A DNA stretch of 64,000 nucleotides from an uncultured Alphaproteobacteria bacterium (GCA_963847865.1 CAWKBL010000012.1:967411-1031410), one strand, 5' to 3'; positions 5,268 through 48,345 are shown, numbered from the stretch's first letter. Notes: a model not told the origin generated them from the sequence alone. Program-made: numbers and translations.

Positions 5268-5285
5268 CCGCGATGCTCGCGAATT

Positions 5286-6642: not shown

Positions 6643-6825
6643 TGCAGCTCATGTCGATGCAGTCTCCCTCGCGCGGGCCGCAACAAAGCACGGACGCCGC
6701 TCAAAACAACACCGGCGCGAATGCGGCGCTTTGCCGGGGCGCCGGCAATTGCGAAGGCTTTGTCCCCGCCACTATGGTCGGCGCCCGAGGCGCGCCAGAA
6801 ACATTAGAGACCCGGAGGAAGCCTG

Positions 6826-7359: not shown

Positions 7360-7364
7360 GGATC

Positions 7365-8335
7365 GGGCGTGCGCACGCACTTTTCGCGGGTTGCCTGCGC
7401 CGCGCCGGTGCGGTGCTCGCCGCCGCGCGGCTTTGGCCGGCGCGCGCGATTGCCGCGGAGCGCTCCGCGCGTCACCGAAGCCTTCGTCACCGATCAGACG
7501 GGCGATTCGCTGTCGATCGTCGGATCTCGACGACGCTGCGGGTCGCGCAAACCATGAAGATCGGCGGCAAGCCGGCCGGCATCGCCATGTCGGGCGACGG
7601 CAAGCGCGTACATCACCGCGCCCGAGGGCAAGGAGCTCATCGTCGTCGATGCCGTGACGCGCGGCTCGTCAAGCGCATGAAGGTCGGCGAGGGACCGCTC
7701 GGCGTCGCGGCCCATCCCACGAACGGCCGCGTCTACGTCGCCGACTGGTACACGCACAAGATCTACGTCGTCGATCCCGACGCCGGCGCGATCGTCAGCG
7801 AGATCGAGGTCGGGCAAGTCGCCCTCCGGCCTCGCGGTCACGCCCGACGGGCGGCTGCTGCTTAGCGCCGACCGCGACAGCAACGCGGTGTCGTTCATCG
7901 ATGCGGCAAACGAATGCGCGCCTCGGCACGGTGCCGGTCGGCGACGCGCCCTTCGGCATCACCATCGATCGCGAGGGCGGCGCGCCTATACCGCGAACGT
8001 CGGCAGCAACGACGTGAGCGTGATCGACATCGCGAGCCGCAAAGTGATCGCGACGGTTCCGGTCGGGAGGCGCCCCTACGCGGTGGCGCTGGCCGGCGGG
8101 CGCGCGTTCGTGACCAACCAATACGGCGGAACGGTCAGCGTCATCGATACTGGCGAGCTGAAGGTGATCAAGACGATCGAGGTCGGCGACCATCCCGAAG
8201 GGATCGAGGCCGATGCGGCGCGGAGACTACGTCTATGTCGCCTGCTGGTTCGACAACGTGCTGCAGCGCATCGATGCCGCCAGCATGACTCACGGGGGAG
8301 GCAGCGGTCGGCGACGGTCCGCGCGCCTTCGGCCT
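7365..8335 (+). pseudogene. YVTN-family beta-propeller repeat protein, frameshifted; ends approximate
   Basis: Repeated blades (...RVYVADWYTHKIYVVD..., ...RAYTANVGSNDVSVIDIASRKVIATVPVG..., ...AFVTNQYGGTVSVIDTGELKVIKTIEVG...) across 3 frames. Confidence 0.55.
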
Positions 8336-8522
8336 TTTTCTGCGCTGAGGCGACCCCGCCGCGGCCGCCCTGGCGAGGATCTTGCTCATGCAGGTGCGGT
8401 TCCCGCCGCCGGTGCATGACCAATCGTTAAGGATTCGCGCTGTGGACGGGCGCGCGCCTCAGAGGTTAGAACAGGCCCCAAAGGCTGGGCTTCAACAACT
8501 TGAATAGGAAGGAAACTCGAGT

Positions 8523-9227
8523 ATGCGGGTCTCTAGTGGGAGCGGCGCCCTTTTGGCGCTCATCGTCGCGCTCTGGTCCGGTGCTGGCTCGGCGGCAGTC
8601 GCGGCCGATCCGCTGACCGCGGTCAACATCATCTTCGAGCAAAAGCACCTTTTGAACGTGGAGCAGGGCAAAGAGCTCGACTACAAGTTCAGCCGGACTG
8701 TTTCGAACCCGCAGCTTCTGGGTGAGCCGTTCAAGGACAACGTCACCTTGAAGGTTGTGGGCGAGAAGCCCACCGGAGAGCGCGACGTCGATCTGCAGAT
8801 CTATACGGGCGACCGCGCGCGCGACCTGCAGAAGCTGCCGGGTCTCTTCGTCAATCCGGTTTTTCAGGTCTATTTCAGCCAGGCGGTCAACAGCATGGGC
8901 ATGCTGTCCGGGGGCAAGACGCCTTATCTGACGCGAGCCTTCTCGCTGGGGTTCAAGGACAAGGCGAAGGTCGAGCCGACTAAGGTCGAATACCAGGGCA
9001 AGAAGGTCGACGCCTACCGCATCTCGATGGTGCCTTATGCCGGCGACAGGAACGAGTCCAAGATGCAGGGGTGGGAAGGGGCCGAGTACACGCTCGTCGT
9101 GAGCGACCAGGTCCCCGGCGAAATCGTCGACCTTGTCGCCAACTACAAGAACAAGTACCCCGGTGATCTCCGGCTCGTCGAGCGCTACACGCTCGACGGC
9201 GTGACCGGCGTGGAGGATATCAAATGA
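8523..9227 (+). CDS. hypothetical secreted protein (234 aa), intact, no family recognised
   Basis: Signal peptide LLALIVALWSGAGSAAVAA; intact ORF in a frameshift-rich neighbourhood; ATGA overlap with next ORF. Confidence 0.6.
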   Translation: MRVSSGSGALLALIVALWSGAGSAAVAADPLTAVNIIFEQKHLLNVEQGKELDYKFSRTVSNPQLLGEPFKDNVTLKVVGEKPTGERDVDLQIYTGDRARDLQKLPGLFVNPVFQVYFSQAVNSMGMLSGGKTPYLTRAFSLGFKDKAKVEPTKVEYQGKKVDAYRISMVPYAGDRNESKMQGWEGAEYTLVVSDQVPGEIVDLVANYKNKYPGDLRLVERYTLDGVTGVEDIK

Positions 9228-9581
9228 AGCTGCGATCTCTACTGTTGGCCGGGGTGCTGACCGCTGCCGGCGCAGGCACGATGGCACGCGCCGTGGAGCT
9301 GCCCGTCAATGACTACCCGACGTATGCCCGCGCCGATTACGTGTTCGCGTGCATGCAGACCAACGGCCGGACGCGCGCCTGCGCTCGAGAAGTGCTCCTG
9401 CTCCATCGATCAGATCGCGGCGCTGCTGCCGTTCGACGAATACGAGCAGGCCGAGACGATCCTGTCGGTGCGCCAGAAGGGCGGCGAGAACGTCACGATG
9501 TTCAACAGCTACGCGCCGCTGCTCGAGAAGGTGAAGAACTTGAAGCGCGCGCAGGTCGAAGCGGAGCTTCGCTGCTTCTGA
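9224..9581 (+). CDS. hypothetical secreted protein (about 118 aa) with one apparent frameshift near 9375
   Basis: Signal peptide MKLRSLLLAGVLTAAGAGTMA; C-terminal half continues in ORF 9309..9581 frame (...QIAALLPFDEYEQAE...ELRCF*). Confidence 0.45.
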
Positions 9582-9636
9582 GGGAAGCGGAGCTTCGCTG
9601 CTTCTGACGGGAACTTGCGCAGGGCGCCAAAGAATT

Positions 9637-9670
9637 AAGGGCACCACGCCGCGTGGTGCCCTTTTTGCTG
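9637..9670 (+). terminator. rho-independent terminator (GGGCACCACG-ccg-CGTGGTGCCC then TTTTT)
   Basis: Perfect 10-bp stem followed by T5, directly after the 9224..9581 ORF. Confidence 0.7.
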
Positions 9671-9689
9671 TTTGCGGCTTTGTCCTGGC

Positions 9690-10523
9690 TCAGGACGCCT
9701 TGTCGGCGGAGGTCGCCGTGAACTCGGCGCCGTCGGTATCCTTGACGGTAACCTCCAGCGTATTGTCCTTGGCGGGCGCGAACGTGAAGCGGAAGTTGGG
9801 GTTCTCCGAGATGGAGATCCCGCCCTCCATGCGGAAGACGAGCTCGCCGCCGCGCTTGACCGTCAGCTCCTGCACGAACCTCGCCGGCGTGTAGTCGCGC
9901 GTCACCTGATCCATCTGCATGCCCGTGAAATTGGGGTGGCGCACCATGACTTGCGCCTCGCGCGTTGCGGGCGTGCGATCGGCGGACTTGTCGAACGTGC
10001 GGATCTGCATCTTGCCGAGGTTGGCGAAGGCCTCGTCGGCATCCTTTCCCGCCGCCGCCGAGCAGCCGCCGGAGGCTTTCACGTATTTCGTCGCCATGTG
10101 CAGCTTGCCGTCCGTCGTCTCGATCACCGCGCGGACGTTGGAGTACATGTCGATGCGAACGCGCGTGGAGAGCATGCGGTCGCCCTTTCCGGCGGCGTCT
10201 CCGAAATGGAAGGTGGCCGCGACCGGGGCGGGGTTCTTTTCGATGACGAGCGTGAGCGTCTTCACGTCGCCGGCGATACTCGCCGGGATTCGCATGGTGA
10301 GCGGAACGACGGCGGCGTCCTCGGCCCGGTAGGGGGCGTCCAGCGTGATCGTTCCGTCCTCCTCGAGGATGTCGCGGTTGTCGAAGACGTCGCGCTTGAT
10401 GTCGGGCCAGGGATCATCGGCGCGCGCCGGCGCGCCCGAAAGCGCCATGGCGAACGCGGCGGCCAGAGCCATGAGAATTGGGCTGGAGCGCCTTGCCGCG
10501 GGCATGCGCATCGTTGCTTGCAT
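9690..10523 (-). CDS. quinoprotein dehydrogenase-associated SoxYZ-like carrier protein
   Basis: Signal peptide [35 protein letters not shown]; SoxY/SoxZ-like beta-sandwich organisation; GGAGGAAG RBS; adjacent to MBL hydrolase and xoxF. Confidence 0.65.
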   Translation of the reverse strand: MQATMRMPAARRSSPILMALAAAFAMALSGAPARADDPWPDIKRDVFDNRDILEEDGTITLDAPYRAEDAAVVPLTMRIPASIAGDVKTLTLVIEKNPAPVAATFHFGDAAGKGDRMLSTRVRIDMYSNVRAVIETTDGKLHMATKYVKASGGCSAAAGKDADEAFANLGKMQIRTFDKSADRTPATREAQVMVRHPNFTGMQMDQVTRDYTPARFVQELTVKRGGELVFRMEGGISISENPNFRFTFAPAKDNTLEVTVKDTDGAEFTATSADKAS

Positions 10524-10558
10524 AGTGCTTCCTCCACGGTAGCCACGCCGTCGCGGGC

Positions 10559-11530
10559 TCACTCCCATTCGAGCTCGGCAAATGCGGCCGAGACGTTGCG
10601 GGCATGATACTCCTTGAACAGCAGCCATGCATCCTTTTCGGACGTCCCCGCGGTCTTCATTGCGTCAGACATGGTTCGCCCTTCCTTGATCATCGTCCGC
10701 ACCTCGTCGGCCACCTTGCCGAGATAGCGCTGCTCGGGCGCGAGTGCGGCGGGCAATTGCATGGACGCCGGCCCGTGGCCGGGCACGACGCGGGCGACGT
10801 CGGTGCGATTCTGCAGCTTGCTGAGAAAGGCGAGCCAGCCGCGGATCGAGCCGTCGAGCGCCGGCACATGCTTGGAAAACAGCAGATCGCCGAGGAAGAG
10901 CGTGCCGGTCGTCTCGTCGAGGACCGTGAGGTCGTTGTCGGTATGGGCCGTCTTCTGCGCTTCGAGCCGAAGCTTGCGGTCGCCCAGATCGAGCTCGGCG
11001 GTGTCCTCGACGAGCATCGTCGGCGCGATGATGCGCGTGCCCGCGAAGGCTGCCTCACCTAGCAGCTCCTTGTTGATGGCAAGGTAGCGCTCCGCTCGGG
11101 CCGCGAGCGCGCGCGGCAACTTGTGATGGCCGACGAAGATCGGCTTCTCACCTTCGAACGCTGCGTTCCCGAAGACATGGTCGGGGTGCATGTGGGTGTT
11201 GATGACGTACTTGATGGGAAGCTGCGTGCGGGCGCGGATGGCTTGGAGCAGCGCTTCGCCGACGCGCGGGCTGCCGCCAGTGTCGATGACCGCAACTCCG
11301 TCGCGGCCGATGATGAAACCCGCATTCGAAATGTCGCCGGAGTTGCCGGGCGTGAAAATCTCGTAGCGGCCCTGATGCACGAAGACGCCGGGCGCGATCT
11401 CCTGCACCGGAAGCGGTTCGGCGGCTTGTGCGCCGCCGCCCGCAACCACGGACGCCGCCGTCAGCAAGGCGGCTAAAAGTCTGCAGAATCTGGCGAAATT
11501 GGCGGTCAAAAGCATGATGATCCGGCACAT
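10559..11530 (-). CDS. MBL-fold zinc hydrolase (quinoprotein relay system zinc metallohydrolase 2-like)
   Basis: HxHxDH motif (NTHMHPDHVFGN), signal peptide, divergent from xoxF. Confidence 0.7.
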   Translation of the reverse strand: MCRIIMLLTANFARFCRLLAALLTAASVVAGGGAQAAEPLPVQEIAPGVFVHQGRYEIFTPGNSGDISNAGFIIGRDGVAVIDTGGSPRVGEALLQAIRARTQLPIKYVINTHMHPDHVFGNAAFEGEKPIFVGHHKLPRALAARAERYLAINKELLGEAAFAGTRIIAPTMLVEDTAELDLGDRKLRLEAQKTAHTDNDLTVLDETTGTLFLGDLLFSKHVPALDGSIRGWLAFLSKLQNRTDVARVVPGHGPASMQLPAALAPEQRYLGKVADEVRTMIKEGRTMSDAMKTAGTSEKDAWLLFKEYHARNVSAAFAELEWE

Positions 11531-11668
11531 GTAACGCTTCAGGGCATATAGACACGCTCGATCACGCCGTCGAGAGCGGCGCGTGATCGACGGCCTGCGT
11601 CTCTGCCCGCGCGATCACTGCACCGTACTGCAAACGACGGTGTGATGTTCGCGACGGTCAAGATTAGT

Positions 11669-11746
11669 GCAATTGCAGGCAAGCCAATGAATTCGGCGCG
11701 CGAACAAGATTTTGTCGTGCAATGCACCATTCGTCTTTGCAGTGCA
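11669..11746 (+). promoter_or_regulatory. three TGCA-N(1-2)-TGCA palindromic motifs in the xoxF/MBL divergent promoter region
   Basis: TGCAATTGCA (11669-11678, perfect palindrome), TGCAATGCA (11718-11726), TGCAGTGCA (11738-11746) within an AT-rich intergenic region about 290-360 bp upstream of xoxF ATG. Confidence 0.35.
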
Positions 11747-12031
11747 GCAATCAACGATGGAATACCGCAATTTTTAAGTCAGCGATCTTGTCCTATTCAC
11801 GGACGCGTGAATTTTCGTTACCGGATCGTCTTGCGGACTGGAAAAAAAAGTGCGTAGATGTGCCGCGGTGGTGACATGGCTTCCAGGGTCAAGGGCAATG
11901 CCCGAATAAGACCCGGTCGATCGCCAGGGAGAAAGAAGGGGCAAACCCCATCCCTACAGTATTGGGTGTGAGGCGCTGTCGTTCACCATCGCTTGCAAGC
12001 GTGGCAAGAACCTTAAAATGGAGGAAGCGCA

Positions 12032-13852
12032 ATGCGCAGAAGCGTATTCGCAGGTGCGTTGGTTGCATCGGCCGTCCTAGCGGCGCCGGCGCTGGCCAAC
12101 GAAAGTGTCGTAAAGTGCATAGCCGACGCGAACAACTGGTGCATGCAGCAGGGTAACTACTCTGCCACCCGTTATTCGAAGCTGGATCAGATCAACACCA
12201 AGAACGTCGGCACCTTGCAGGTCGCGTGGACCTTCTCGACTGGCGTTCTTCGCGGGCACGAGGGTTCGCCTCTCGTCGTTGGCAGCACCATGTGGCTGCA
12301 CACGCCGTTTCCGAACATCGTGTACGCTCTGAACCTCGACGACGAGAACAAGATCATCTGGAAGTACGAGCCCAAGCAGGATCCGTCCGTGATCCCCGTC
12401 ATGTGCTGTGACACGGTCAACCGTGGCCTGCAGTATGCCGACGGCAAGGTGTTCTTGCACCAGGCTGATACGACGCTCGTCGCGCTCGATGCCAAGACCG
12501 GCAAAGAGCTCTGGAAAGCCGTCAATGCCGATCCTAAGCGCGGTGAGACGGGTACTGGTGCTGCCCTCATCGTTGGCGACGTCGTGATGATCGGCGTGTC
12601 CGGCGCAGAGTTCGGCGTTCGCTGCTTCTTTACCGGTTACGACATCAACTCCGGCAAGCGGCTGTGGCGCGGCTACTCGATGGGTCCCGATGACGAGATC
12701 CTCTTCAACCCTGAGAAGACCATGTCGCTCGGCAAGCCGGTCGGCAAGGACTCCTCGCTCAAGACCTGGAACGGCGACCAGTGGAAGCTGGGCGGCGGTT
12801 CGATCTGGGGCTGGTATGCTTGGGATCCCAAGCTGAACCTGGTCTATTATGGAACGGGCAACCCTTCCACATGGAACCCGGCTCAGCGCGCTGGTCCTGA
12901 CGGTAAGCAGATCGACCAGAAGTGGTCGATGTCGATGATCGCTCGCAACCCTGAGACGGGTGAAGCAGCGTGGGCTTACCAGATGACCCCGTTCGACGAG
13001 TGGGACTTCGATGGCGTCAACGAGATGATCCTCGTCGACGGCATGGACGTCAAAGGCTCCAAGCACGACGTCATCGTCCACTTCGACCGTAACGGTCTTG
13101 GCTACACGGTTGACCGTAAGTCCGGCCTGCCGCTCGTCGCCGAGAAGTACGATCCGGCCGTCAACTGGACGACCGGTGTCGATCTTGATCCCAAGAGCGA
13201 CAAGTATGGTCGTCCGGCGGTTGTCGCCTCCAAGTCGACCTTCCTGAACGGCGCTGACGTCAACACCGTTGATGTCTGCCCCGCCGCTCTCGGAACCAAA
13301 GACCAGCAGCCTGCGGCTTACTCGCCGCTGACGGGTCTCTTCTACGTGCCGACGAACCACGTCTGCATGGATTACGAGCCCTTCAAGGTCGAGTACACCG
13401 CTGGTCAGCCGTACGTTGGTGCCACGCTGTCCATGTATCCGCCCAAGGGCGAGAGCCACATGGGCAACTTCATTGCGTGGGATGCCAGCACCGGTAAGAT
13501 CGTCTGGTCGAACAAGGAGCAGTTCTCGGTATGGTCGGGTGTTCTCACGACCGCTGGCGGCATCGCCTGCGTCGGCACCCTCGAGGGCTACTTCAAGTGC
13601 GTCGATCAGAAGGACGGCAAGGAGCTGTATAAGAACCGCACTCCTTCCGGCATCATCGGTAACGTCATGACCTACGGTCATGGTGGCAAGCAGTACATCG
13701 CCGTCTTCTCGGGCGTCGGTGGTTGGGCCGGTATCGGCCTGGCGGCTGGCTTGACCAACCCGACCGATGGTCTGGGTGCCGTTGGTGGCTACGCCGGTCT
13801 CAACGACTACACCGCTCTTGGTGGGTCGCTGACCGTGTGGTCGCTGCCATAA
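12032..13852 (+). CDS. xoxF: PQQ-dependent methanol/alcohol dehydrogenase, XoxF type (lanthanide-dependent clade)
   Basis: 606 aa; [14 protein letters not shown]..., vicinal Cys pair (VMCCDT), 8-bladed PQQ propeller W-motifs; followed by cytochrome cL and MxaJ-like genes. Confidence 0.93.
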
Positions 13853-13872
13853 GCCTCGACTGAGACGTCAAG

Positions 13873-13900
13873 GACCGGCGCGGGGTATCCCGCGCCGGTC
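13873..13900 (+). other. intercistronic stem-loop between xoxF and xoxG (GACCGGCGCGGG-gtat-CCCGCGCCGGTC)
   Basis: Perfect 12-bp inverted repeat 20 nt after xoxF stop; not followed by a T-tract. Confidence 0.5.
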
Positions 13901-14021
13901 TCCTTGTGAGTCAGGGGCTTCCTTCCGCAATGGAGCTGATGCAACACAAAGCGGTCCCAATGGCCCAAATCACGCTCGGGTGATCGATTTGCCCGTTGTA
14001 CTCTCGGCCTAAATCGCCCAA

Positions 14022-14642
14022 ATGATGTATCGAAGCCTGCAAACAAAAGCAGACAAGGGGAAACGCGTGAGAAGGATTTTCGTAGTCGTCGCGGCGCTCG
14101 CGATGGGCGGCGCTCTCGCCACAACGGCGAACGCCGAGGATGCGCAGCCCGGGCCGAAGCTGGTTACGCTGCCCGACGGCTGCATGACCCAGGAAGGTGC
14201 CAAGGACGAGAACGGCAAGTGGGTTCTGCCCGACGGAACGCCGACGTTCCACGTCTGCAAGACCGACGGGACCCTCGTTGCCGACTGGTACACCTACGAC
14301 GGCTATCGCCGTTATCATTCGGAGTGCCACGTCTGTCACGGCCCCAATGGGCTGGGCTCGTCCTACGCTCCCGCTTTGGCGAAATCGCTGAAGTCGCTGA
14401 CTTACGGCGACTTCCTCGGAACCGTCGCCGGCGGCCGCCAGCGCGACGAAGCTGGTACCAAATTTGTGATGCCGTCGTTCGGTGACAACAAGAACGTCAT
14501 GTGCTTCATCGACGACCTCTATCTGTACCTGAAGGCAAGAGCCGAGGGTGTGGTCCCTGCAGGTCAGCTGGGTGGTCGCAACCACGCGCCCAAACCGGAA
14601 CAGGCGCGAGACTATGAAAAGGCGTGCTTTGGTGGTGGCTAA
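14022..14642 (+). CDS. xoxG: cytochrome c-L (XoxG); real start possibly GTG 14067
   Basis: Single heme CHVCHG motif; signal peptide; position after xoxF. Confidence 0.85.
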   Translation: MMYRSLQTKADKGKRVRRIFVVVAALAMGGALATTANAEDAQPGPKLVTLPDGCMTQEGAKDENGKWVLPDGTPTFHVCKTDGTLVADWYTYDGYRRYHSECHVCHGPNGLGSSYAPALAKSLKSLTYGDFLGTVAGGRQRDEAGTKFVMPSFGDNKNVMCFIDDLYLYLKARAEGVVPAGQLGGRNHAPKPEQARDYEKACFGGG

Positions 14643-15480
14643 ACACTTCGCGTATCTGGCGGTCTTTGGTGCTCTGAGCGCCTTGGCTTCGTCCTCGGCT
14701 TGGGCCGTGGAAGGACACAATGCCGATCTCGTCAACCGGCAAGTGCTGCGCATTTGCGCCGACCCGGCGAACATGCCGTTCTCGAACCAGAAGGCGGAAG
14801 GGTTCGAGAACAAGATCGCCGACATCATCGGAAACGAGCTGGGCATCAAGGTCGAGTACACTTGGTTTCCGCAGGCCGTGGGCTTCACGCGCAATACGCT
14901 TCTGGCCAAGCGGTGCGACCTGATCATCGGCACGGGTCAGGGCGACGACCTCGTGCTCAACACCAACCACGTCTATCGCTCGACGTACGCGCTCGTCTAT
15001 CCGCCGAATAAGGGGCTCGACGGCGTCGACAGCCTTTTCGATCCCCGCCTGAAGGACAAGCGGGTCGGCGTCATGATCAGCACGCCGCCGGCCGATATCA
15101 TCAACAAGGCCGGCCTCATGGGCAAGGCAAAGCCCTATCGGCTCATGGTCGACCGCCGGTTTGATTTACCCGCCGAGGACATGATCAAGGATATCCGCTC
15201 CGGAGAGATCGACGCCGGCGTGCTCTGGGGCCCGATGGCCGGATACTACGCCACCAAGGGCGGCGAGAAGCTCGACGTCGTGCCCTTGGTCAAGGACGAC
15301 AAGAGCGGCCACATGGAGTTCCGCATCACCATGGGCGTGCGCCAGGGGGACGACCTTTGGAAGCGCAAGCTCAACGACATCCTCAACAAACGCCGGGCCG
15401 ACATCGATCGCGTCCTGCTCGAGTATGGCGTGCCGCTGCTTGACGAGGACAATAAGCCCGTCACCGAGCCGCGCGGGTAA
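14614..15480 (+). CDS. xoxJ: MxaJ/XoxJ-like periplasmic binding protein
   Basis: Signal peptide MKRRALVVAKHFAYLAVFGALSALASSSAWA; extracellular solute-binding fold; third gene of xoxFGJ. Confidence 0.8.
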   Translation: MKRRALVVAKHFAYLAVFGALSALASSSAWAVEGHNADLVNRQVLRICADPANMPFSNQKAEGFENKIADIIGNELGIKVEYTWFPQAVGFTRNTLLAKRCDLIIGTGQGDDLVLNTNHVYRSTYALVYPPNKGLDGVDSLFDPRLKDKRVGVMISTPPADIINKAGLMGKAKPYRLMVDRRFDLPAEDMIKDIRSGEIDAGVLWGPMAGYYATKGGEKLDVVPLVKDDKSGHMEFRITMGVRQGDDLWKRKLNDILNKRRADIDRVLLEYGVPLLDEDNKPVTEPRG

Positions 15481-15481
15481 G

Positions 15482-16111
15482 ATGCGCGGCTGGCCCCGCC
15501 AGCGGCGCGCTTCCGCGCCAGGCGGAAGCGAGCGCGCACAACGCGCGCCAAAACGTCAGCTCCTGACGGTTGCGGTGTTGGCGCTGGGCTTGGCCGCCCT
15601 TGTGCCGGGCGCCCCCTCGGCGCTGGGCGCGGAGCCCGTCGCGGAGCCGCAAGACTACCGCATGAGCGATTATCGCAGCCCGGTTCCCCTGACGCTGCGC
15701 GGTGCAAAATCCTTGACGAACGACGAGGCCGCCGACCTGTGGAACCAGAACGGCGCAATTTTCATCGACGTCTTTCCGCAAGCGCCCAAGCCGAAGAACC
15801 TGCCCGCCGGCACCTTCTGGCGCGATCCCGTCCATCGCAGCATCGAGGGCGCCTACTGGCTGCCCAACGTCGGCTACGGCGCGTTGCCGGCTGACGTCGG
15901 GGACTATTTCACAAGCCGGCTTGAGCGCCTGACCAAAGGCAACCGCGCGGCCCCGATCGTCTTTTTCTGTCTGAAGGACTGCTGGATGTCGTGGAACGCC
16001 GCCAAGCGCGCGTTGGCTGCCGGCTACAGCCACGTCATGTGGTTCAGGGACGGCACCGACGGCTGGCAGGAGCTCGGCTACCCGCTGGTCGATCTCACCA
16101 TGGTTCCCTGA
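15482..16111 (+). CDS. PQQ-dependent catabolism-associated CXXCW-motif (rhodanese-like) protein
   Basis: FFCLKDCWMSWNAAKRA (C-x-x-C-W), signal peptide, starts 1 nt after xoxJ stop. Confidence 0.75.
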   Translation: MRGWPRQRRASAPGGSERAQRAPKRQLLTVAVLALGLAALVPGAPSALGAEPVAEPQDYRMSDYRSPVPLTLRGAKSLTNDEAADLWNQNGAIFIDVFPQAPKPKNLPAGTFWRDPVHRSIEGAYWLPNVGYGALPADVGDYFTSRLERLTKGNRAAPIVFFCLKDCWMSWNAAKRALAAGYSHVMWFRDGTDGWQELGYPLVDLTMVP

Positions 16112-16151
16112 CCCTCACGAAGGTTCCCGGATCCTCACGCAGGTTCCTGAA

Positions 16152-16169
16152 GCCCGGCTGCTGCCGGGC
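16152..16169. terminator. hairpin GCCCGGC-tgct-GCCGGGC between convergent genes
   Basis: 7-bp perfect stem between the CXXCW gene (+) and the 16179..17019 gene (-); weak T-tracts. Confidence 0.35.
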
Positions 16170-16178
16170 CTATGGCCC

Positions 16179-17019
16179 TCAGTTCTTCATTTCGGCCCGG
16201 ATCAGCTTGGCGACCTCGTAGGCGCGCTGCTCGATGAGGGTCGGGATCTCGCACGCCATCGTCAGGTTCTGCTGGCGGTCCTGGAAGATGCGCGCGTTCC
16301 AATTGTACTCCTGCTGCTCGGCGCGTCAGCTTGGTGTCCCTCGGGCCCAGCTGCTCTTCGGCGGGAATATTCTGGTCCATCGAGGCGAGCTTCTGGCCCT
16401 CGCGCTCGATCTCGTCGGCACGGGCCTTCTGGCGCCGCTGGAACTGCTCGATGCGCTGCATGACGAACTTGCGATCGGTATTGATCTTCGCGAGCACGCT
16501 GGCGAAAAGCCCGGTCAGCTTCGTGTCGCGCTCGCCCTCCGGCTGACTCTGGGCATATTCCTTGATCGCCTTCTCCGCGTCCTCGATCGCAACGCGGCGG
16601 CTTTGAAGGTAGGTCGTCAGCTCTCTAATCTTGTCGTCGCTCTCCCAGCCCTTCACCTCGTCAACCGGGGGGCCGTCCCAAATCTGCGCCGACGTCAGCT
16701 CCGCCACCTTGCGCTGCACGCAGGGCCAATCGGGGCTGCCCTTGGTCGAGGCCTCCTCCGCCGCGGGAGCGCTGCTGTCGGGCGAGGTATCGCCGACCTT
16801 GGGTGCATTGGGGGCAACCGTCGGCGCGAGGGGCGCTGTGTCACCGACCTGCGGCTGGTTGGGCAGGACCGTCGGCATTGCCGGGGTAACCGATAGGTCG
16901 GGGGCGGCTGCCTTCCCGCCGGTCTCGGCGGCAGGCTCTGCGGCAGCGGCCGAAAGTGCGAGCAGGCCTGCAAAACAGGCGCTGGCGATCATTCGTGCGG
17001 CGGTGTTCGTGTTTTGCAT
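16179..17019 (-). CDS. hypothetical periplasmic protein with Ala/Pro-rich linker, last gene of ABC operon; one frameshift near 16330
   Basis: Signal peptide MIASACFAGLLALSAAAA; PxxP-rich low-complexity segment; C-terminal domain unassigned; start 5 nt after permease stop. Confidence 0.5.
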
Positions 17020-17023
17020 TTTC

Positions 17024-17908
17024 TTACGCTCCTGCGCCTGGACCGCCGCGGCGGGCGATCAGGCCTTTCGATGGGTTGTAGGCATAGATGGCACCGCCGA
17101 GGAACACGACGGTGCACGCGAGAACCGCGCCGAGCGAGATCCAGTTGACCTGCCCGTAGAGCGCGAAGCGGATCAGCTCCACCGCATGCGTGAAGGGATT
17201 GAGCTCGCAGATCTGATAGAGCAAAACGCTCGATTCCTTGACGCGCCAGAGCGGATAGAGCGCGGAAGAGGCAAAGAACATGGGAAAGATCACGAAGTTC
17301 ATGACGCCGGCGAAGTTTTCCAATTGCTTGATGACGGACGACATGAAGAGCGCGAGCGAGCCCAGCATCAGACCCGATAGAATGAGCGCCGGCAGCACGG
17401 TGAAGTAGCCGTAAAGCGGCGGCTCGATCTCCCAGAAATAGGCAACCGCCAGAAAGGCGTAGACCTGCAGCAGCGATACCGCGACCCCGCCCACGAGCTT
17501 GGACAGCAACAGGAAGGAGCGCGGGAAGGGGCTTACCAGCAGCGTGCGCATCGCGCCCGTCTCGCGGTCGTAGACCATCGATAGCGAGGACTGCATGGCA
17601 TTGAACAGCTGGATCATGCCGATGAGGCCCGGCGCGATGAAGACCTCGTAGAGCACGTAGGTCTCATACGGCGGAATGATCGAGACGCCGAGCGTCTGCC
17701 GGAAGCCCGCCGCGAAGATGAATAGCCAGACGAGGGGACGCACGAGTGCCGAGAGGAAGCGCTCGCGCTGGTGCAGGTAGCGAAGCACCTCGCGCCAGAC
17801 GATGCCCTTGAAGCAGGTGTAGTAGGCGCCCGCACTTAGCCGCGGGGGATCGGTATCCCAGCTACCGCCCGCGGGGGCAGCGCGCACGGGTGTGGCGCTC
17901 TGGCTCAT
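17024..17908 (-). CDS. ABC-2 type transporter permease (PQQ-dependent catabolism-associated)
   Basis: 6 TM ABC-2 permease architecture; overlaps ATPase gene. Confidence 0.85.
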   Translation of the reverse strand: MSQSATPVRAAPAGGSWDTDPPRLSAGAYYTCFKGIVWREVLRYLHQRERFLSALVRPLVWLFIFAAGFRQTLGVSIIPPYETYVLYEVFIAPGLIGMIQLFNAMQSSLSMVYDRETGAMRTLLVSPFPRSFLLLSKLVGGVAVSLLQVYAFLAVAYFWEIEPPLYGYFTVLPALILSGLMLGSLALFMSSVIKQLENFAGVMNFVIFPMFFASSALYPLWRVKESSVLLYQICELNPFTHAVELIRFALYGQVNWISLGAVLACTVVFLGGAIYAYNPSKGLIARRGGPGAGA

Positions 17909-18687
17909 GCGGCCAACTCCGTGTCCGTCGTTCCGGTGATCGTCCTGAACGCATCCGAGACGTTTTGCGTGGCCGTCTTCGCCAACAGCTCGGGAACGGA
18001 GCCCGTGAAGAGAAGGCGCCCCTTGTGCAGGATTGCTATGAGATCGGTCGGGCGCACCTCATCGAAGAGATGCGTCGCCCACAGGACGCCCAGACCCTCC
18101 GTCTCCACGAGCGAGCGCACGATGTTGATGACGCTCTCGCGCGAGCCGATGTCGAGGCCGACGGTGGGCTCGTCGAGCAGCAGGAGGGCCGGCTGGTGCA
18201 ACAGCGAGCGCGCGATCTCGACGCGGCGCGCCTGTCCCCCTGAGAGATTGCGCACCTTTTCGCGCGCGCGGTCGGACAGTCCGACGATCTCGAGCGCGCG
18301 CTCCGTGCGCCGGCGCGCTTCGCGGCCGCGGATGCCGTGCAGCGCGCAATGGTAGAGCAGGTTCTGCTTGAGGCTCAAATCGAGGTCGAGAGTTCGGCTC
18401 TGAAAAACGACGCCGAGGCGCTGCAAGGCGGCTGAGGCGCGCCTGCGCACGTCGTAGCCGAAGATGCGAATTTCGCCCGACACGTTGTCATAGAGGCGCG
18501 TGACGAGCGCAAACAGCGTCGACTTGCCGGCGCCGTTGAGCCCGAGCAGGACGACGAATTTGCCGCGCGGGATCGCAAGCGAGACGTCGTCCAGCGCCAA
18601 CGTCTCGCCGAAGCGATGACTGACGTTCTTGACGGAGAGAGCAGGCGCTGCCTCGACGTCGCGTTGGGGTTCAGATGCCATATCCAT
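17905..18687 (-). CDS. ABC transporter ATP-binding protein
   Basis: Walker A GLNGAGKST, signature LSGGQARRVEIA, Walker B LLLLDEPT. Confidence 0.9.
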   Translation of the reverse strand: MDMASEPQRDVEAAPALSVKNVSHRFGETLALDDVSLAIPRGKFVVLLGLNGAGKSTLFALVTRLYDNVSGEIRIFGYDVRRRASAALQRLGVVFQSRTLDLDLSLKQNLLYHCALHGIRGREARRRTERALEIVGLSDRAREKVRNLSGGQARRVEIARSLLHQPALLLLDEPTVGLDIGSRESVINIVRSLVETEGLGVLWATHLFDEVRPTDLIAILHKGRLLFTGSVPELLAKTATQNVSDAFRTITGTTDTELAA

Positions 18688-18869
18688 TTCGACGATTTAT
18701 CCCGGTTGCGCTTCTGTTAAGCCGCTGAATATCTTAGAATATTCTTTATGGCTCAAGCCGCGTGAAGAGCATCTCGGCTTCGTCTTCTTTGCTCCAATAC
18801 AACCCGTCCCCTGCGTCCCCCGCAAGCCCATCTGGCTGTGCGTGCGGGGGCGGCGAGGACCGATTTTCC

Positions 18870-19853
18870 TCAGAAGGGCGCGACGACCACGCCCCACGGA
18901 TAGCGTCCCGTCCGGATCGACTTGACCACCTTCAGGGCGGCGACGTCGATGACGGAGACGTCGTTGGACGTACCGTTGGTCGTCAATAGCTTCTTGTCGT
19001 CGGGCGTGAAAGCGAGCTGCCAGACGCGCTGCCCGACCAGCAGGTACTTGATCACCTTCAGGGTCGCGGTGTCCACCACCGCGACGCGATTGGCGGGGCC
19101 GAGCGCGACGAACGCGAGCTTGCCGTCCTTCGTGATGCGAACCCCGACGGGCTGAATGGCTTCCTTGGTGATGCCCGGGATCTCGAAGGTCACCTTGCCG
19201 ATGACCTTGCGGTCGGCCGGGTTGATTACGGTGACGGTGCCGCCGACCTCCGAGCTCACCCAAAGCTGGGTCCCCGTCGCATTGAACATCGCGACGCGCG
19301 GGCGGCTGTCGACCAGCACGTTGTCGAACGTCTTGTGCGTCGTGGTGTCGATGAAATGCGCCATGTTGGTCGTCTCGGAAGTGTTGACCAGCACCTTGCC
19401 GTCGGGGCTCATGCCCATGCCCTCGGGCTCCACGCCCACGGGGATGTCGGTGATGACCGAGCCCTTGTTGATGTCGACGACGGTGACGAGGTTGTCGTCC
19501 TCGTTGGCGATGTAGAGCGGGTTGCCGGACGGATGCAGGGTCAGCAACTCGGGATCGGGGCCCGACGGCAGCGTCTTGACGAGCTCATAGGTCTTGGTGT
19601 CGTAGACCTGGATGATGTTGTCGTCGCTGGTGCACACGATCAGCCACTTGGCGTCGTTCGACAGGATGATGCCGCGCGGGCGCTGGCCCACCTTGAAGGT
19701 CTTGGTCACCTCCAGCTTTTCGGTGTCGATCACCGAGATGGAGTTGTCCTTCTCGTTGCTTACGAAGGCGGTATAGGCGAGCGCCGCCGGCGCCGGGGCC
19801 AGAAATGCCGCGAGTACGCCGAGCATCCAAACAAAGCCGACCTTAGAGCGCAT
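18870..19853 (-). CDS. YVTN-family beta-propeller repeat protein (PQQ-dependent catabolism-associated)
   Basis: Signal peptide MRSKVGFVWMLGVLAAFLAPAPAALA; repeated ...Y(V/I)xNxxDNxVSVIDxxTxKVxKTIxVG blades; AGGAGG RBS; the upstream extension of the track ORF is spurious. Confidence 0.85.
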   Translation of the reverse strand: MRSKVGFVWMLGVLAAFLAPAPAALAYTAFVSNEKDNSISVIDTEKLEVTKTFKVGQRPRGIILSNDAKWLIVCTSDDNIIQVYDTKTYELVKTLPSGPDPELLTLHPSGNPLYIANEDDNLVTVVDINKGSVITDIPVGVEPEGMGMSPDGKVLVNTSETTNMAHFIDTTTHKTFDNVLVDSRPRVAMFNATGTQLWVSSEVGGTVTVINPADRKVIGKVTFEIPGITKEAIQPVGVRITKDGKLAFVALGPANRVAVVDTATLKVIKYLLVGQRVWQLAFTPDDKKLLTTNGTSNDVSVIDVAALKVVKSIRTGRYPWGVVVAPF

Positions 19854-19912
19854 TAGGCAACGTCCTCCTGAAATTTGACCGGTCACCGGGCCGTGGCCGG
19901 GAAGTGCCGGTG

Positions 19913-21386
19913 TCATTGTGTGTATGCCGTGCATTTGGTTTCGGGCCTGTCGAGGCCCAGCGTGTCGAGCTCGGTGAACTGATGCAGGAAGCCCGGCTGC
20001 GGCGAGACGCTCACGAGAAGCTTCGGCGTGGCGACGAGCACGGGCTGGCGCAGCTGGCCGTTCCAGTTGCGCACGGAAAGGCCCACGCCCTTGAAGGCGG
20101 CGATCTCGAACTTGGGCGACCTCATGTAGGCGACGAGATCCTGATAGGCGGGTGTCTTGGAGCGCGATGCGGCCTCGCCCACCATGCGCGCGGCCATCCA
20201 CGCGTTGTAGTCCTTGGGAAGCATGGTGCGGTCCGCCATGCGCTTGAAGCGGTTCTGGAACTGCGTGCCGCCCCACAGCTCGATCGCCGGGTGCCAGCTC
20301 GAGGGGACGAGGCCCGCAGTGCCCGCGACGGGCCGTGCATCCCAGGTCCGGTAGGGCAGGTAGTCGCCGAACAGGTTGCCCTCATCGGCAACGACGAGCA
20401 CGTCGTAGTCGGGCGCGTTTTGCGTGAAGGTGGGGATCTGCTGCTGTATCTGCTCATAGCCGCCGTCGGAGCGCCGGCTGCCAGGCTGATACTGGAAGGT
20501 CCGCTCCTCGACGATCTTTGCCCCGAAGCGCTTGGCGGCGCGCCGCAGCGCATCGGCGAAGAGCTTGTCGTTCTCCTGGGGGCCAAGCACGAGGAACCAG
20601 CGGTTCCACTTCTTCCATATGAGGTATTGGGCGAGCGCATCGGCCAGCATCGTTCGCGTGGGCGCGGTGTGCATGACGTGAGGGCGGCAATCCTCCTCGC
20701 GCAGGCGATCGTCGGCCGCGCCGTAGTTGATGATCTGCGCCTCCTTGCCGGCAAGCGCATCGGCGAGCTTCAACAGCGTCTGCGGGCCTACGTCGGCAAG
20801 GATGAAGTGGGCGCCGGCGTCGACCTTCTGCACGACATCCTTGATGAGCGTGTCCGGGTTTGCCGCCTCGACGACGTCGAGTTTGAACTGTTGGTTCATG
20901 AAGCGGCCGGTCGTGTTGTTGTCCTTGATTGCGAGCTTGGCGCCGGCGATGCCGAGGTCGGCGGGCGGAAGGTCGAGCAGGGATATCGGGAGTGGCTCGT
21001 CGCGCTGCTCGCGCGCGAGCACGATCGGGATGACGACCATGTCCTTGCCGGTGGCGCCGGCTTCGGGTTGGGCCGCTGCCGCGGGGGCGGCCCGTCCTGC
21101 GGTCGGTTCCGTTGCGGGCGCTGCTGGAGCTTGCGCTGCCGGCGCAGGAGCGGTTTGCTCCGCGGGCGCAGGAGGAGTTTGCGCCGCCGGCGCAGGAGGA
21201 GCTTGGGTCGCGGGTGCAGCCGGTGTCTCCTGGGCCTCCTGGGCTCCTGGCGCTCAAAGCTCCAGCGGAGAGCGCCAACGCCACCAGCAACATCATCGCC
21301 AGAGCGCCGCGCGCGGCTGTCGCCCTCGTGCCGATGCGCGATATCAACGACTGTGCGCCTGCTGCCATCAAGACCGCTTCTCCCAT
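19913..21386 (-). CDS. ABC transporter substrate-binding protein (PQQ-dependent catabolism-associated) with N-terminal Ala/Pro-rich repeat linker; start approximate, one frameshift in the linker
   Basis: Type I periplasmic binding fold (375 aa core) preceded by the signal-peptide-like stretch MMLLVALALSAGALSA and an APAPAAQTPPAPAEQTAPAPAAQ linker. Confidence 0.75.
21128..21212. repeat. about 24-bp imperfect tandem repeats (x3) encoding Ala/Pro/Gln-rich linker of the binding protein
   Basis: gcgcaggagcggtttgctcc / gcgcaggaggagtttgcgcc / gcgcaggaggagcttgggtc. Confidence 0.6.
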
Positions 21387-21648
21387 CCTCGGCGCTTCGT
21401 TCTTCCGACGAGCGCACGGTTGCTCAAGTTCGTTCCCGAGCGATGTGTTACTATGTTGCGGTAAAAGGGTATTCAGGGGGCGTCTTGTCAAGGTCTACCG
21501 GGATTACTCGCGGACTTGTGACCTAGCCCGGCGCGGCTATCGGCAACAAGCCCCTTGCAAATCGACCCCCGATCGGCACACGTAACCTCATAACATTTAA
21601 ACACCCCAAGACCCCGCAAGAGGGGCCGCGTGCTCTAGAGGAAACCTC

Positions 21649-22209
21649 TTGAATCTTGACCGTATCTCCGCCTTGGCTCTGGCGTTCATGCTCGTCCCGG
21701 CGGCCGCCTTGGCAGGACAGCCGAAAGCCGTCATCTTCCCCTTCGGTCTCATCGATCAGCAGCAGCAGTTCGAGATCGGGATAATGCCCCAGGGCATTGA
21801 TCCCGAGGAGAAACGGCGGCTGGGGGTCATTACCGAAGAGCTAACCAAGCTCATCAAGGAAAGCGGCCGCTACGAGGTCGTGGATTCGGCGCCGATCGCG
21901 GCGGAGATCGAAGAGAAGTCTCCCATGTACAAGTGCAACGGCTGCGAGGATGACCTTGCCAAAAAGGTCGGCGCGGACATCGCGTTCATCGGCACCGTGC
22001 GCAAGGCATCCGACGTGCTGTTCACGGTGAGTGTCTATATCCGCGACGTCTCCAAGCAGAAGGTGACGAAGCAGGGGTCCGGCGAGATCTACGGCAACAC
22101 CGACGCCATGTGGACGCGCGGGGTTCGCTATGCGGTGGAGCGGCGACTTTTCGCGGAAAAGGCCGGCACGACCGCCAAAGAAGAGCCGGCGAAGGGAGCC
22201 TTGCAATGA
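21649..22209 (+). CDS. hypothetical secreted protein (DUF2380/DUF3280-like)
   Basis: Signal peptide; CNGCEDD motif; 186 aa. Confidence 0.5.
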   Translation: MNLDRISALALAFMLVPAAALAGQPKAVIFPFGLIDQQQQFEIGIMPQGIDPEEKRRLGVITEELTKLIKESGRYEVVDSAPIAAEIEEKSPMYKCNGCEDDLAKKVGADIAFIGTVRKASDVLFTVSVYIRDVSKQKVTKQGSGEIYGNTDAMWTRGVRYAVERRLFAEKAGTTAKEEPAKGALQ

Positions 22210-23192
22210 TCGATCGCCGCCGCGTGCTGCTGGCCGGCGGAGCCGCTCTTGCGAGCCTCGGGTTCGCCGTGCCGGCGCGCGCCGCACTGGGCACGCTGCG
22301 CGTGGCATCGTTGAAGTTCGGCTCATTGGGTTGGGTGCTCGAGACGATCCGCGCCGAAGGGATTGCCGACAAGTTGGGCTTGAAGCTCGATATCATCGAC
22401 GTGGCGACGAACCAGGCGGGGCCCGTTGCGCTCCTGTCGGGTGACGCCGACGTCATCGTCAGCGATTGGCCGTGGGCGCTGCGCCAGCGCGCGCTGGGCG
22501 AGCACGTGAAATTCGCCCCCTATTCGTCCGCGCTCGGTGCGGTGATGGTGCCCAAGGACTCCCCGATCGCGCGCCTCGCCGACCTCGAAGGCAAGAAGCT
22601 CGGCGTTGCCGGCGGCGCCATCGACAAGAGCTGGCTGCTGCTGCGGGCCTATTCGCGCAAGACGATCGGCAAGGATCTGGACAAGGCGGCAGAGCCCGTA
22701 TTTGGCGCAGCGCCGCTGCTCACCGAGGAGATGCGCAGCGGGCGCCTCGACGCTGTGCTCAACTTCTGGACCTATTCGGCCCGCCTGGCGGGCGCCGGCT
22801 ATCGCAAGCTGATCGGCATGGACGAGGTCTTGAAGGCGCTCGATATCGATCCGGTGCCCTCGCTCGTCGGCTTCATCTGGCGCGAGTCGACGCAGAAGAA
22901 GAAGGGCCCCGAGATCGCCGCGTTCCTCGATGCCGTCGCGGCGGCGAATGCGATCCTGGCCAAGTCCGACAGCGCGTGGGAGCGGGTACGCGGGCTCGTG
23001 AAGCCCGCCGACGACGCCGAGTTCGCCGCTATCAAGGCCTTTTATCGCGAGGGAATTCCGCCGCCGTGGTCGGAGGCGGACACTCGCTCCGCCGAGAAGC
23101 TAACTCAGGTGCTCACGAGCGCCGGCGCTGCCGAGCTCATGGGCGGGAACACCCAGTTCGATCCGAAGCTCTTCCATGCTGCAGGCAGTTAA
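22206..23192 (+). CDS. ABC transporter substrate-binding protein, NMT1/aliphatic sulfonate (TauA/SsuA)-like
   Basis: Twin-arginine-like signal MIDRRRVLLAGGAALASLGFAVPARA; ATGA overlap with previous gene. Confidence 0.75.
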   Translation: MIDRRRVLLAGGAALASLGFAVPARAALGTLRVASLKFGSLGWVLETIRAEGIADKLGLKLDIIDVATNQAGPVALLSGDADVIVSDWPWALRQRALGEHVKFAPYSSALGAVMVPKDSPIARLADLEGKKLGVAGGAIDKSWLLLRAYSRKTIGKDLDKAAEPVFGAAPLLTEEMRSGRLDAVLNFWTYSARLAGAGYRKLIGMDEVLKALDIDPVPSLVGFIWRESTQKKKGPEIAAFLDAVAAANAILAKSDSAWERVRGLVKPADDAEFAAIKAFYREGIPPPWSEADTRSAEKLTQVLTSAGAAELMGGNTQFDPKLFHAAGS

Positions 23193-26574: not shown

Positions 26575-26671
26575 AATGGACGATGTCGAACTCCCGCGCT
26601 TGCCTTGGGCTCGCGGGCACGATCGTGGTCGAATGCACAGCGATTAAGGGCGCGGTCGAGGCACGGCTCAC

Positions 26672-48279: not shown

Positions 48280-48345
48280 GCGCCGCGCCGAAGGTGATAG
48301 ACTTCGGAGAATGACGGGGAACGAGACGATGCTTAGGAGGCGTTT

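Follow-up and report, generated by a model that had tools for sequence, protein, structure and literature searches.

The stretch of DNA analyzed here (the window) comprises 64,000 nucleotides (nt) from an uncultured Alphaproteobacteria bacterium (GCA_963847865.1 CAWKBL010000012.1:967411-1031410), and its portion between ~6.8 and 22.2 kb is probably a conserved lanthanide methanol-oxidation island of a Hyphomicrobium-like genome, composed of four modules. The locus is a well-conserved case of an already known kind of gene island: most of its parts are known or named, and it does not constitute a new kind of system. The new information is comparative, in that three protein families (LutG, to which a Pro-rich exported protein of the window is assigned, and two unnamed secreted families here termed P_A and P_B) are conserved and interlocked with 'quinoprotein relay' genes and with xoxF5.

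The gene map was built from a listing of open reading frames (ORFs), three-frame translation, and scans with NCBIfam and Pfam models using curated cutoffs. Bit scores are given with the cutoff of the respective model:

~6828-7298, + strand: MxaD-like SRPBCC (PF10604-type) periplasmic protein, frameshift-broken here
7392-8345, + strand: YVTN2, a second YVTN beta-propeller, in at least four reading-frame pieces here
8523-9227, + strand: P_A, 234 amino acids, secreted, without Cys, unnamed family
9224-9581, + strand: P_B, ~118 amino acids, secreted, helical, unnamed family; 4-nt overlap of its start with the P_A stop
9637-9663: terminator-like bidirectional hairpin (stem of 12 bp) where the P_B and SoxYZ-like genes converge
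9690-10523, - strand: SoxYZ-like fused carrier, quinoprotein dehydrogenase-associated (TIGR04557, 283 bits vs cutoff 140)
10559-11530, - strand: metallo-beta-lactamase-type (MBL) quinoprotein relay system zinc metallohydrolase 2, SoxH-like (TIGR04559, 419 vs 280)
12032-13852, + strand: xoxF, predicted lanthanide-dependent methanol dehydrogenase using pyrroloquinoline quinone (PQQ), intact (TIGR03075, 692 vs 480)
14022-14642, + strand: xoxG, methanol-metabolism c-type cytochrome (TIGR03874, 183 vs 162)
14614-15480, + strand: xoxJ, periplasmic binding-protein-like accessory (TIGR03871, 298 vs 212)
15482-16111, + strand: CXXCW rhodanese-like protein, PQQ-dependent catabolism-associated (TIGR03865, 210 vs 128)
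16179-17019, - strand: Pro-rich exported protein assigned to the LutG family, frameshift at 16324
17024-17908, - strand: lutF / pedC, ATP-binding cassette (ABC) permease, type ABC-2 (TIGR03861, 392 vs 241)
17905-18687, - strand: lutE / pedB, ABC ATPase (TIGR03864, 329.5 vs 302)
18870-19856, - strand: lutB / pedA2, YVTN beta-propeller (TIGR03866, 511 vs 287)
19913-~21368, - strand: lutA / pedA1, periplasmic substrate-binding protein (TIGR03863, 478 vs 414 for 19913-21040)
21649-22209, + strand: DUF3280 (PF11684) protein, divergent from lutA (Pfam, 134 bits)

A first-pass annotation had described a complete set of such genes wrapped around an intact xoxFGJ, bounded at 8523 and 21400. The gene types that it named were all found at or near the positions it gave, with scores above the curated NCBIfam cutoffs, and xoxFGJ is intact; P_B, lutG and lutA, however, each carry a frameshift, and the gene ends placed at 9581 and 16179 had bridged frameshifts silently. 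Across TIGR03861-03866 and TIGR04557-04559, the tested models scored above cutoff with the exception of TIGR04558 (metallohydrolase 1; 205 vs 300), leaving the type-2 hydrolase (TIGR04559) as the only one in the window. The bounds proved too narrow, as the MxaD-like gene and YVTN2 upstream and DUF3280 downstream also belong to the island.

Gene order and reading frames of the xox/lut island

The best PDB match of the window XoxF is XoxF1 of M. extorquens (6oc5; 948 bits), with MxaF large subunits scoring ~540-580 bits, and alignment to XoxF1 revealed the vicinal cysteines (MCCDTVNRG) and the segment DEWDFDG to be common to both proteins. The second Asp of the D-x-D within this segment is presumably a lanthanide ligand. 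Judged by its TIGR03075 score, its proximity to XoxF1, and the DEWDFDG segment, XoxF is a lanthanide methanol dehydrogenase. Downstream, the CXXCW gene starts 1 nt past the xoxJ stop on the + strand (in Sagittula, it overlaps xoxJ by 4 nt) and is part of the xoxFGJ transcription unit, translationally coupled to xoxJ. It had been placed in the downstream ABC operon, which instead lies on the - strand: the genes from 21368 to 16179 form one operon convergent with the xoxFGJ unit.

On the other side of xoxF, a ~500-bp divergent intergenic region separates it from the MBL gene. Within this region, ~160-200 nt upstream of xoxF (11829-11872), the short blocks TCTTGCG and GTGCGTAGATGTGCCGCGGTG are conserved across 45 loci and probably mark a promoter region or one bound by a regulator. 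Sites resembling promoters or terminators were no commoner than in shuffled sequence, and only the hairpin at 9637-9663 (12 pairs, eight of them G-C, with a T-run on the + strand) looks meaningful; an Rfam scan of 8300-21800 returned no match.

Conservation of the arrangement was assessed in a synteny set of 80 genome loci retrieved with a profile of the LutG-like protein. The whole 17-gene order is kept in relatives at ~80% DNA identity and across the 80 loci, with lutA and lutB present in 61/61 loci and xoxF found within 10 kb in 51 of 58. The co-occurrence of these gene types with PQQ dehydrogenases, as originally proposed, was thus borne out in related loci. The MxaD-like gene is syntenic in 27/58 loci and also occurs in Sagittula (annotated there as 'SRPBCC family protein'), and YVTN2 was found in 33/58.

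Parts of the island recur in more distant lineages. In one metagenomic lineage (locus L084), the genes for the binding protein, propeller, LutG, P_A, and P_B follow one another with 4-nt overlaps, succeeded by a LysR regulator and pqqA, and another distant lineage has lutABEF-lutG and then MBL. On a plasmid of Sagittula stellata E-37 and on pSymB of Sinorhizobium meliloti, P_A and P_B lie beside the SoxYZ-like gene and MBL adjoins LutG nearby, around xoxF5; the RefSeq label of the P_A, P_B, and LutG homologs in Sagittula is 'hypothetical protein'. These two clusters (SM_b20165-b20179 in S. meliloti) share P_A, P_B, SoxYZ-like, MBL, LutG, xoxFGJ, CXXCW, and DUF3280 with the window. The S. meliloti stretch additionally holds lutA and lutB, and the Sagittula cluster YVTN2 and the SRPBCC gene. 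Unlike the window, both insert glutathione-dependent formaldehyde genes (frmA, frmB) and carry LutG beside MBL rather than after the permease, whereas the Hyphomicrobium version is flanked by tetrahydromethanopterin (H4MPT)/Fhc genes rather than frmA/frmB.

An independent collection of 72,556 plasmids was searched with five of the families, and matching records numbered 126 for P_B, 117 for CXXCW, 116 for the LutG-like protein, 100 for the SoxYZ-like protein, and 94 for P_A. The genera were largely the same for all five (Sinorhizobium with 71-75 records each, Sagittula with three). Azospirillum (10-13 records) and Phyllobacterium (four) were listed for every family except P_A, the low identity of which makes its search less sensitive, and Paraburkholderia (eight) for P_A and P_B only.

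Several reading frames of the island are interrupted in this assembly. P_B shifts frame near 9379 through a one-base insertion, where close homologs read GRTRAALEKCSCS straight through. In the Pro-rich gene, the shift at 16324 comes from a single additional base, the sole indel that separates the window from a JGI contig with 99.46% identity over 3309 nt. The lutA frame switches near 21245, which puts the signal peptide in one frame and the Pro/Ala linker and mature domain in another, and an intact 453-amino-acid relative has the same architecture in a single frame. A scan of codon-position GC further revealed abundant frame switches across 3-8.4 kb, with the xox/lut core otherwise made up of single ORFs. 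Counted over 1900-8400, the switches come at about one per 200-300 nt, in what looks like a locally low-quality piece of a long-read assembly or possibly a decaying segment, most of the remaining window being read as single ORFs. The dense stretch covers fhc-type genes (FTR, FTR_C, GXGXG, and Amidohydro_3 fragments), the MxaD-like gene, and YVTN2. The MxaD-like gene was recovered by tblastn with the intact 175-amino-acid protein of a relative (locus L002; 45% identity over residues 1-156, DNA ~81% identical). For YVTN2, a fragment at 7888-8430 contains TIGR02276 repeats (96 bits) and propeller repeats are visible in all three frames; in L002 it is an intact gene of 326 amino acids.

We consider the frameshifts in lutA, lutG, P_B, YVTN2, and the MxaD-like gene to be most likely assembly errors, and judge this likelier than real mutation because relatives at ~80% DNA identity hold the affected genes intact, because fhc genes are central to C1 metabolism, and because one long-read locus (L003, 13232-15050) splits xoxF into two genes (295 and 305 amino acids), which the near-identical L002 carries as one of 605 amino acids. 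The latter discrepancy implies sporadic indel errors in long-read metagenome-assembled genomes (MAGs) of this type. Were the shifts real, the locus would be decaying and the five genes would be pseudogenes in this strain. Such decay could account for the number of cluster genes affected and for the density of switches upstream to 8.4 kb, and the two best-defined indels do not lie in homopolymers, which leaves room for real mutations. We nevertheless regard it as unlikely, given that the dense region also breaks the fhc formyltransferase/hydrolase genes, that identity to relatives stays at ~80% with no large deletions, and that the JGI contig has an intact lutG, in addition to the xoxF split seen in L003 only.

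The lanthanide importer and its Pro-rich companion

The four importer components, which exceed the cutoffs of TIGR03863 (lutA), TIGR03866 (lutB), TIGR03864 (lutE), and TIGR03861 (lutF), are contiguous on the - strand (17024-21368), 3.2 kb from xoxF, and the frames of lutB, lutE, and lutF are intact. By homology to proteins studied in mutants of P. putida and M. extorquens, lutA-lutB-lutE-lutF would encode a lanthanide ABC importer of the PedA1A2BC/Lut type. In P. putida KT2440, deletion of pedA1A2BC raises the amount of lanthanum (La) needed for PedH-dependent growth ~100-fold; the transporter is required for growth at nanomolar La, and a role in the uptake of carbon substrates has been excluded (PMC6839425). 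In M. extorquens AM1, growth on methanol with La is abolished in lutE and lutF mutants and slow in those of lutA, lutB, and lutG, and transporter mutants pile up La deposits in the periplasm (PMC7391723). Given these mutants, the first-pass statement that the protein types around xoxFGJ all lack an experimentally defined role does not hold for the ABC transporter and its binding protein, nor for the YVTN propeller (PMC6839425; PMC7391723). It also fails for the Pro-rich protein, the family of which is LutG, as lutG deletion slows La-dependent growth on methanol (PMC7391723). The Lut importer would carry lanthanide out of the periplasm and into the cytoplasm, probably in chelated form, with LutB (a propeller) and LutG (a Pro-rich helical protein) as periplasmic accessories that, by homology, are needed for full function.

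The lut cluster of M. extorquens AM1 and pedA1A2BC of P. putida KT2440 comprise the same four families as the window and likewise adjoin a lanthanide PQQ dehydrogenase. As in the lut cluster, a LutG-family gene follows the permease, and in Bradyrhizobium, lutA-B-E-F-G are consecutive in the order of the window (PMC12628762 Table S3). In contrast to the lut cluster, the window has neither a TonB-dependent receptor (lutH) nor lanmodulin nor lutC/lutD (LanD) between lutB and lutE, its LutG has a long Pro/Ala-rich linker, and its lutA and lutG are frameshifted in this assembly.

The LutG-like protein consists of a signal peptide, a Pro/Ala-rich linker, and a 185-residue helical domain with two conserved cysteines. 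Its frame-corrected C-terminal domain has 311 full-length homologs, and a profile search recovered 852 clusters at 50% identity. Searches against Pfam, NCBIfam, and PDB sequences gave no match, and Pfam scans of the family member by member yielded nothing usable. The domain is modeled as a helical bundle (predicted local distance difference test (pLDDT) >90) with only generic fold matches. In the window, the gene begins after a 4-nt gap from the permease stop, and in L088 it overlaps the permease by 4 nt. More generally, in Hyphomicrobiaceae loci it comes directly after the permease if that gene is present, and after the pair of binding protein and propeller if the permease lies elsewhere.

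The identity of this protein was traced through S. meliloti. The homolog on pSymB of strain 1021 (29% identity, E=4e-25) adjoins frmA, and the gene order leading away from xoxF is xoxF, cytochrome c, frmB, frmA, and the LutG-like homolog; using the Sagittula homolog as a second query placed the S. meliloti gene at ~11944-12501, again beside frmA. A published table assigns xoxF to SM2011_b20173, frmB to b20171, and frmA to b20170, and lists SM2011_b20169 as a homolog of lutG META1_1784 (PMC12628762 Table S3). This gene order identifies the S. meliloti homolog as SM_b20169, and since the latter is listed as a lutG homolog, the window protein belongs, by sequence relationship, to the LutG family. 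For LutG itself, a mutant phenotype has been reported, with the mechanism not yet described (PMC7391723).

Two further neighbors recur next to the importer. A second ABC transporter at 22206-24674 (NMT1/THI5-like binding protein, BPD_transp_1 permease, and ATPase) is conserved next to lutA/DUF3280 in 50 of 61 related loci, and an NMT1-type binding protein is encoded beside lutB on pSymB of S. meliloti (885-1895 of locus L090). This transporter may belong to the same functional neighborhood as the island. DUF3280 was detected by tblastn in 38/61 loci. It adjoins lutA in L086, L088, and S. meliloti, and in Sagittula it lies at the margin of the cluster, which makes it a recurrent, unexplained neighbor.

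Two unnamed secreted families beside xoxF

Neither P_A nor P_B has a Pfam, NCBIfam, or PDB-sequence match, and a member-by-member Pfam scan of the P_A family yielded nothing usable. P_A has 182 homologs, with several invariant acidic and aromatic positions, and a database protein (P0241) is 100% identical to it. The 881 homologs of P_B are ~119 amino acids long, up to 93% identical, and all annotated as hypothetical; four cysteines are invariant and the C-terminus NLKRAQVEAELRCF is almost so. The P_B model is a small helical bundle (pLDDT 78.8) for which no meaningful structural neighbor was found. When P_A, P_B, and the LutG-like protein were compared with PDB sequences, lanmodulin and LanD chains included, no match at E<=10 stood out from noise. 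We also rejected P_B as a LanD or lanmodulin, for which it has no sequence match and the wrong size (LanD is 6.8 kDa, mature P_B ~10.5 kDa).

The two families differ in the genes that they accompany. Every one of the 38 xoxF loci with a SoxYZ-like gene also carries P_A, as does one of the 13 lacking that gene; P_B is found in 49/51 xoxF loci, including 11 of those 13. This distribution supports the view that P_A goes with the relay module, and P_B with xoxF itself, in Hyphomicrobiales and Rhodobacterales. The two are also neighbors of each other, as P_A homologs adjoin P_B in L084, Sagittula, and S. meliloti. Of the three secreted proteins left unassigned by the first-pass annotation (P_A, P_B, and the Pro-rich protein), all are conserved members of the neighborhood without a family-model match, as suspected there, and one falls into the known LutG family.

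MxaI and MxaD serve the calcium methanol dehydrogenase as accessories comparable to what is considered here. By analogy to these, P_B could serve as a small subunit, as an adaptor to XoxG, or as a chaperone for disulfides or lanthanide loading. Given that P_B pairs with xoxF5 almost universally and has a small, disulfide-stapled helical fold, we take its most likely role, on synteny alone, to be that of a chaperone or direct partner to XoxF or XoxG. The more far-reaching proposal that P_A, P_B, and LutG are unrecognized core parts of the lanthanide-dehydrogenase accessory machinery, next to the SoxYZ-like carrier, the zinc hydrolase, and the CX3CW protein, with P_B as a direct and obligatory partner of XoxF5, is put forward tentatively and is rather less likely to be true than false. 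If true, XoxF5 enzymes would not be stand-alone homodimers, as is usually assumed.

The relay trio and its possible chemistry

The SoxYZ-like carrier, the MBL hydrolase, and the CXXCW protein form what we refer to as the relay trio. The first two constitute a divergent operon on the - strand (9690-11530), in agreement with the earlier description; the carrier had also been called a neighbor of the rhodanese-like gene, from which it lies 5 kb apart. All three retain the residues needed by a thiol-carrier system. The carrier has a single cysteine in an internal SGGCSAAAG segment, invariant in 38/38 sequences. MBL keeps the complete ligand set for a binuclear zinc site, with HxHxDH (H113, H115, H118), H196, and H252 conserved in 100% of 39 sequences (H118 in 97%). 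The CXXCW protein, which falls short of the Pfam Rhodanese gathering score (20.3 vs 22.2), has one cysteine at the canonical rhodanese active-site position and a second four residues later, and both (C163 and C167, in FFCLKDCW) are invariant in 56/56 sequences. The family is named CXXCW, yet the spacing is C-x-x-x-C-W (CLKDCW) here and in all 56 homologs compared.

Among the 51 xoxF loci, the trio is mostly all-or-none, with 37 loci having all three genes, ten none, and four a mixed set. It corresponds to PP_2677, PP_2678, and PP_2666 in P. putida and to META1p1703-1705 in M. extorquens, and a 2026 review describes it as consistently associated with lanthanide-type PQQ dehydrogenases, proposing roles in disulfide formation, cofactor stabilization, and the shielding of PQQ against sulfur nucleophiles (PMC12997753). 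A similar view of a soxYZ-S4 clade, found next to xoxF with a soxH neighbor, is taken in a 2024 study on the diversity of SoxY (PMC11237559). The relay idea, advanced as new in the first-pass annotation, is hence already present in the curated family names ('quinoprotein relay system') and in this literature (PMC12997753, PMC11237559). The known trio genes (in P. putida and M. extorquens, and at the soxYZ-S4 loci of Thiodiazotropha and H. denitrificans) encode the same fused one-Cys carrier, SoxH-like hydrolase, and two-Cys rhodanese-like protein, and, as in the window, adjoin a lanthanide-type PQQ alcohol dehydrogenase. In contrast to these, the window version has its genes on either side of xoxFGJ, MBL-SoxYZ being divergent while CXXCW is coupled to xoxJ, and is accompanied by P_A and P_B, of which we found no mention in the trio literature.

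By homology, XoxFGJ oxidizes methanol in the periplasm, with xoxG providing the cytochrome and xoxJ a binding-protein-like partner. MBL-SoxYZ-like (divergent from xoxF), CXXCW, and P_A make up the relay module. In the mechanism that we prefer for it, a sulfur or thiol adduct would form on the strained vicinal Cys-Cys disulfide of the dehydrogenase or on the C5 carbonyl of PQQ; the CX3CW protein would transfer it to the single swinging-arm cysteine of the SoxYZ-like carrier, from which the zinc hydrolase would then cleave it off. The net effect would be a lanthanide enzyme that stays active despite sulfur nucleophiles. The + strand products MxaD-like, YVTN2, P_A, and P_B would serve as periplasmic accessories. 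Thiosulfate inhibits growth of Hyphomicrobium on methanol, with which the scheme is consistent (PMC12997753, PMC11237559). We see this specific sulfur-adduct mechanism as a possibility worth entertaining, although the odds are somewhat against it.

A weaker alternative is that the relay handles aldehyde. Here, the carrier cysteine would trap formaldehyde or a different aldehyde as a thiohemiacetal, the PQQ dehydrogenase would convert this into a thioester, and MBL would hydrolyze the latter to the acid, amounting to a periplasmic, protein-bound analog of the glutathione-dependent formaldehyde pathway. Such a function would fit the association of the module with alcohol-type PQQ dehydrogenases in general, including P. 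putida's ped cluster, and not only with methanol enzymes, as well as its position beside frmA/fghA/gfa genes in Sagittula, S. meliloti, and L088. MBL also has local similarity to hydroxyacylglutathione hydrolase (TIGR03413, E=4.9e-10), but this glyoxalase-II similarity reflects a generic metal-binding motif only (residues 78-133), at 39 vs 201 bits. The window organism, moreover, has the H4MPT/Fhc pathway beside the cluster, RB-TnSeq (random barcode transposon sequencing) gave no alcohol-growth phenotype in P. putida (PMC12997753), and the idea is our own, with no support found in the literature. We hold it to be quite unlikely.

A broader version of the sulfur scheme, in which the two operons around xoxFGJ, with ABC transporter, binding protein, and YVTN propeller all included, form one covalent sulfur/thiol relay in the periplasm to feed or repair XoxF, we deem very unlikely. 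The components do co-localize and co-occur, with an invariant carrier cysteine and an invariant CX3CW cysteine pair, and the transporter and relay modules are genetically intertwined, since LutG adjoins MBL in S. meliloti and Sagittula and directly precedes P_A-P_B in L084. What speaks against a single relay are the phenotypes of the transporter mutants: the ~100-fold higher La requirement of the P. putida deletion and the periplasmic La trapped in the M. extorquens deletion are those of metal import. In addition, the CXXCW gene lies outside the ABC operon, and 10/51 xoxF loci keep lutA and lutB without the relay trio. Because homologous mutants show lanthanide-uptake phenotypes, the ABC operon should not be counted in a sulfur relay, and we rejected the ABC system as a part thereof, its published phenotypes being concerned with lanthanide supply.

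That the SoxYZ-like and SoxH-like genes are ordinary Sox genes lying beside xoxF by chance is extremely improbable: the carrier has Pfam SoxY and SoxZ domains and Hyphomicrobium species oxidize thiosulfate (PMC12997753), but the protein scores below the cutoffs for true SoxY (TIGR04488, 75.8 vs 125) and true SoxZ (TIGR04490, 60.3 vs 76) and well above that of the quinoprotein-associated model (283 vs 140), its cysteine is internal in a fused protein rather than in a C-terminal GGCGG, the genes accompany xoxF in Sinorhizobium and Sagittula, and no soxAXBCD match was seen for these proteins. On the strength of the two equivalog models, we rejected it as a true Sox carrier. With canonical SoxYZ, it has in common the SoxY and SoxZ folds and a Gly-flanked carrier cysteine; it differs in the fusion of the two domains, in the SGGCSAAAG linker that holds the cysteine, and in being accompanied by no other sox genes.

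Several points weigh against the overall picture of an importer, a relay, and their accessories serving one dehydrogenase. The trio has minimal RB-TnSeq phenotypes in P. putida, measured without lanthanides (PMC12997753), and a literature search for an experimental test of it found none. In some 10-13 of the 51 xoxF loci, the trio is missing from within 10 kb, and is thus either not obligatory or located elsewhere in those genomes. P_A, P_B, and LutG have no informative fold matches, and their roles rest on synteny alone; the synteny matrix, in turn, is conditioned on loci with a LutG homolog and dominated by Hyphomicrobiaceae MAGs. Finally, the LutG assignment is indirect, made via the S. meliloti match and a published BLAST table rather than by comparison with M. 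extorquens LutG itself.

Beyond the island, genes related to H4MPT biosynthesis (4HFCP_synth, FolB, AA_kinase, and DUF6513/pterin-binding; 24682-28114) follow the second ABC transporter, as they do in L002. With these downstream and fhc upstream, C1-metabolism genes enclose the xox/lut island on both sides. At 693-1499 lies a gene for a pentapeptide-repeat protein, and the P. putida ped cluster also has a pentapeptide-repeat gene (pedD, PP_2673). The stretch 46735-51897 holds a CysG-like sirohaem synthase, a CysJ-like flavoprotein, and behind them a large ORF, and looks like part of a sulfite-reductase gene set, probably unrelated to the island.

Lanthanide-dependent oxidation of methanol and other alcohols is widespread in soil, plant-associated, and marine bacteria and is of relevance to rare-earth recovery, and the proteins that mature, protect, and supply the lanthanide enzyme are only partly known. 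The comparison presented here separates the explained part of the machinery, namely the Lut/Ped importer and LutG, from the unexplained relay trio, which is a recognized open question that this window alone does not settle. It further nominates P_A and P_B as two unnamed secreted families whose presence in Hyphomicrobiales and Rhodobacterales goes with that of the relay genes and of xoxF5. As both have homologs in the genetically tractable S. meliloti (SM_b20165 and SM_b20166, by a count of gene order), the proposal that they belong to the accessory machinery of XoxF5 is directly testable.

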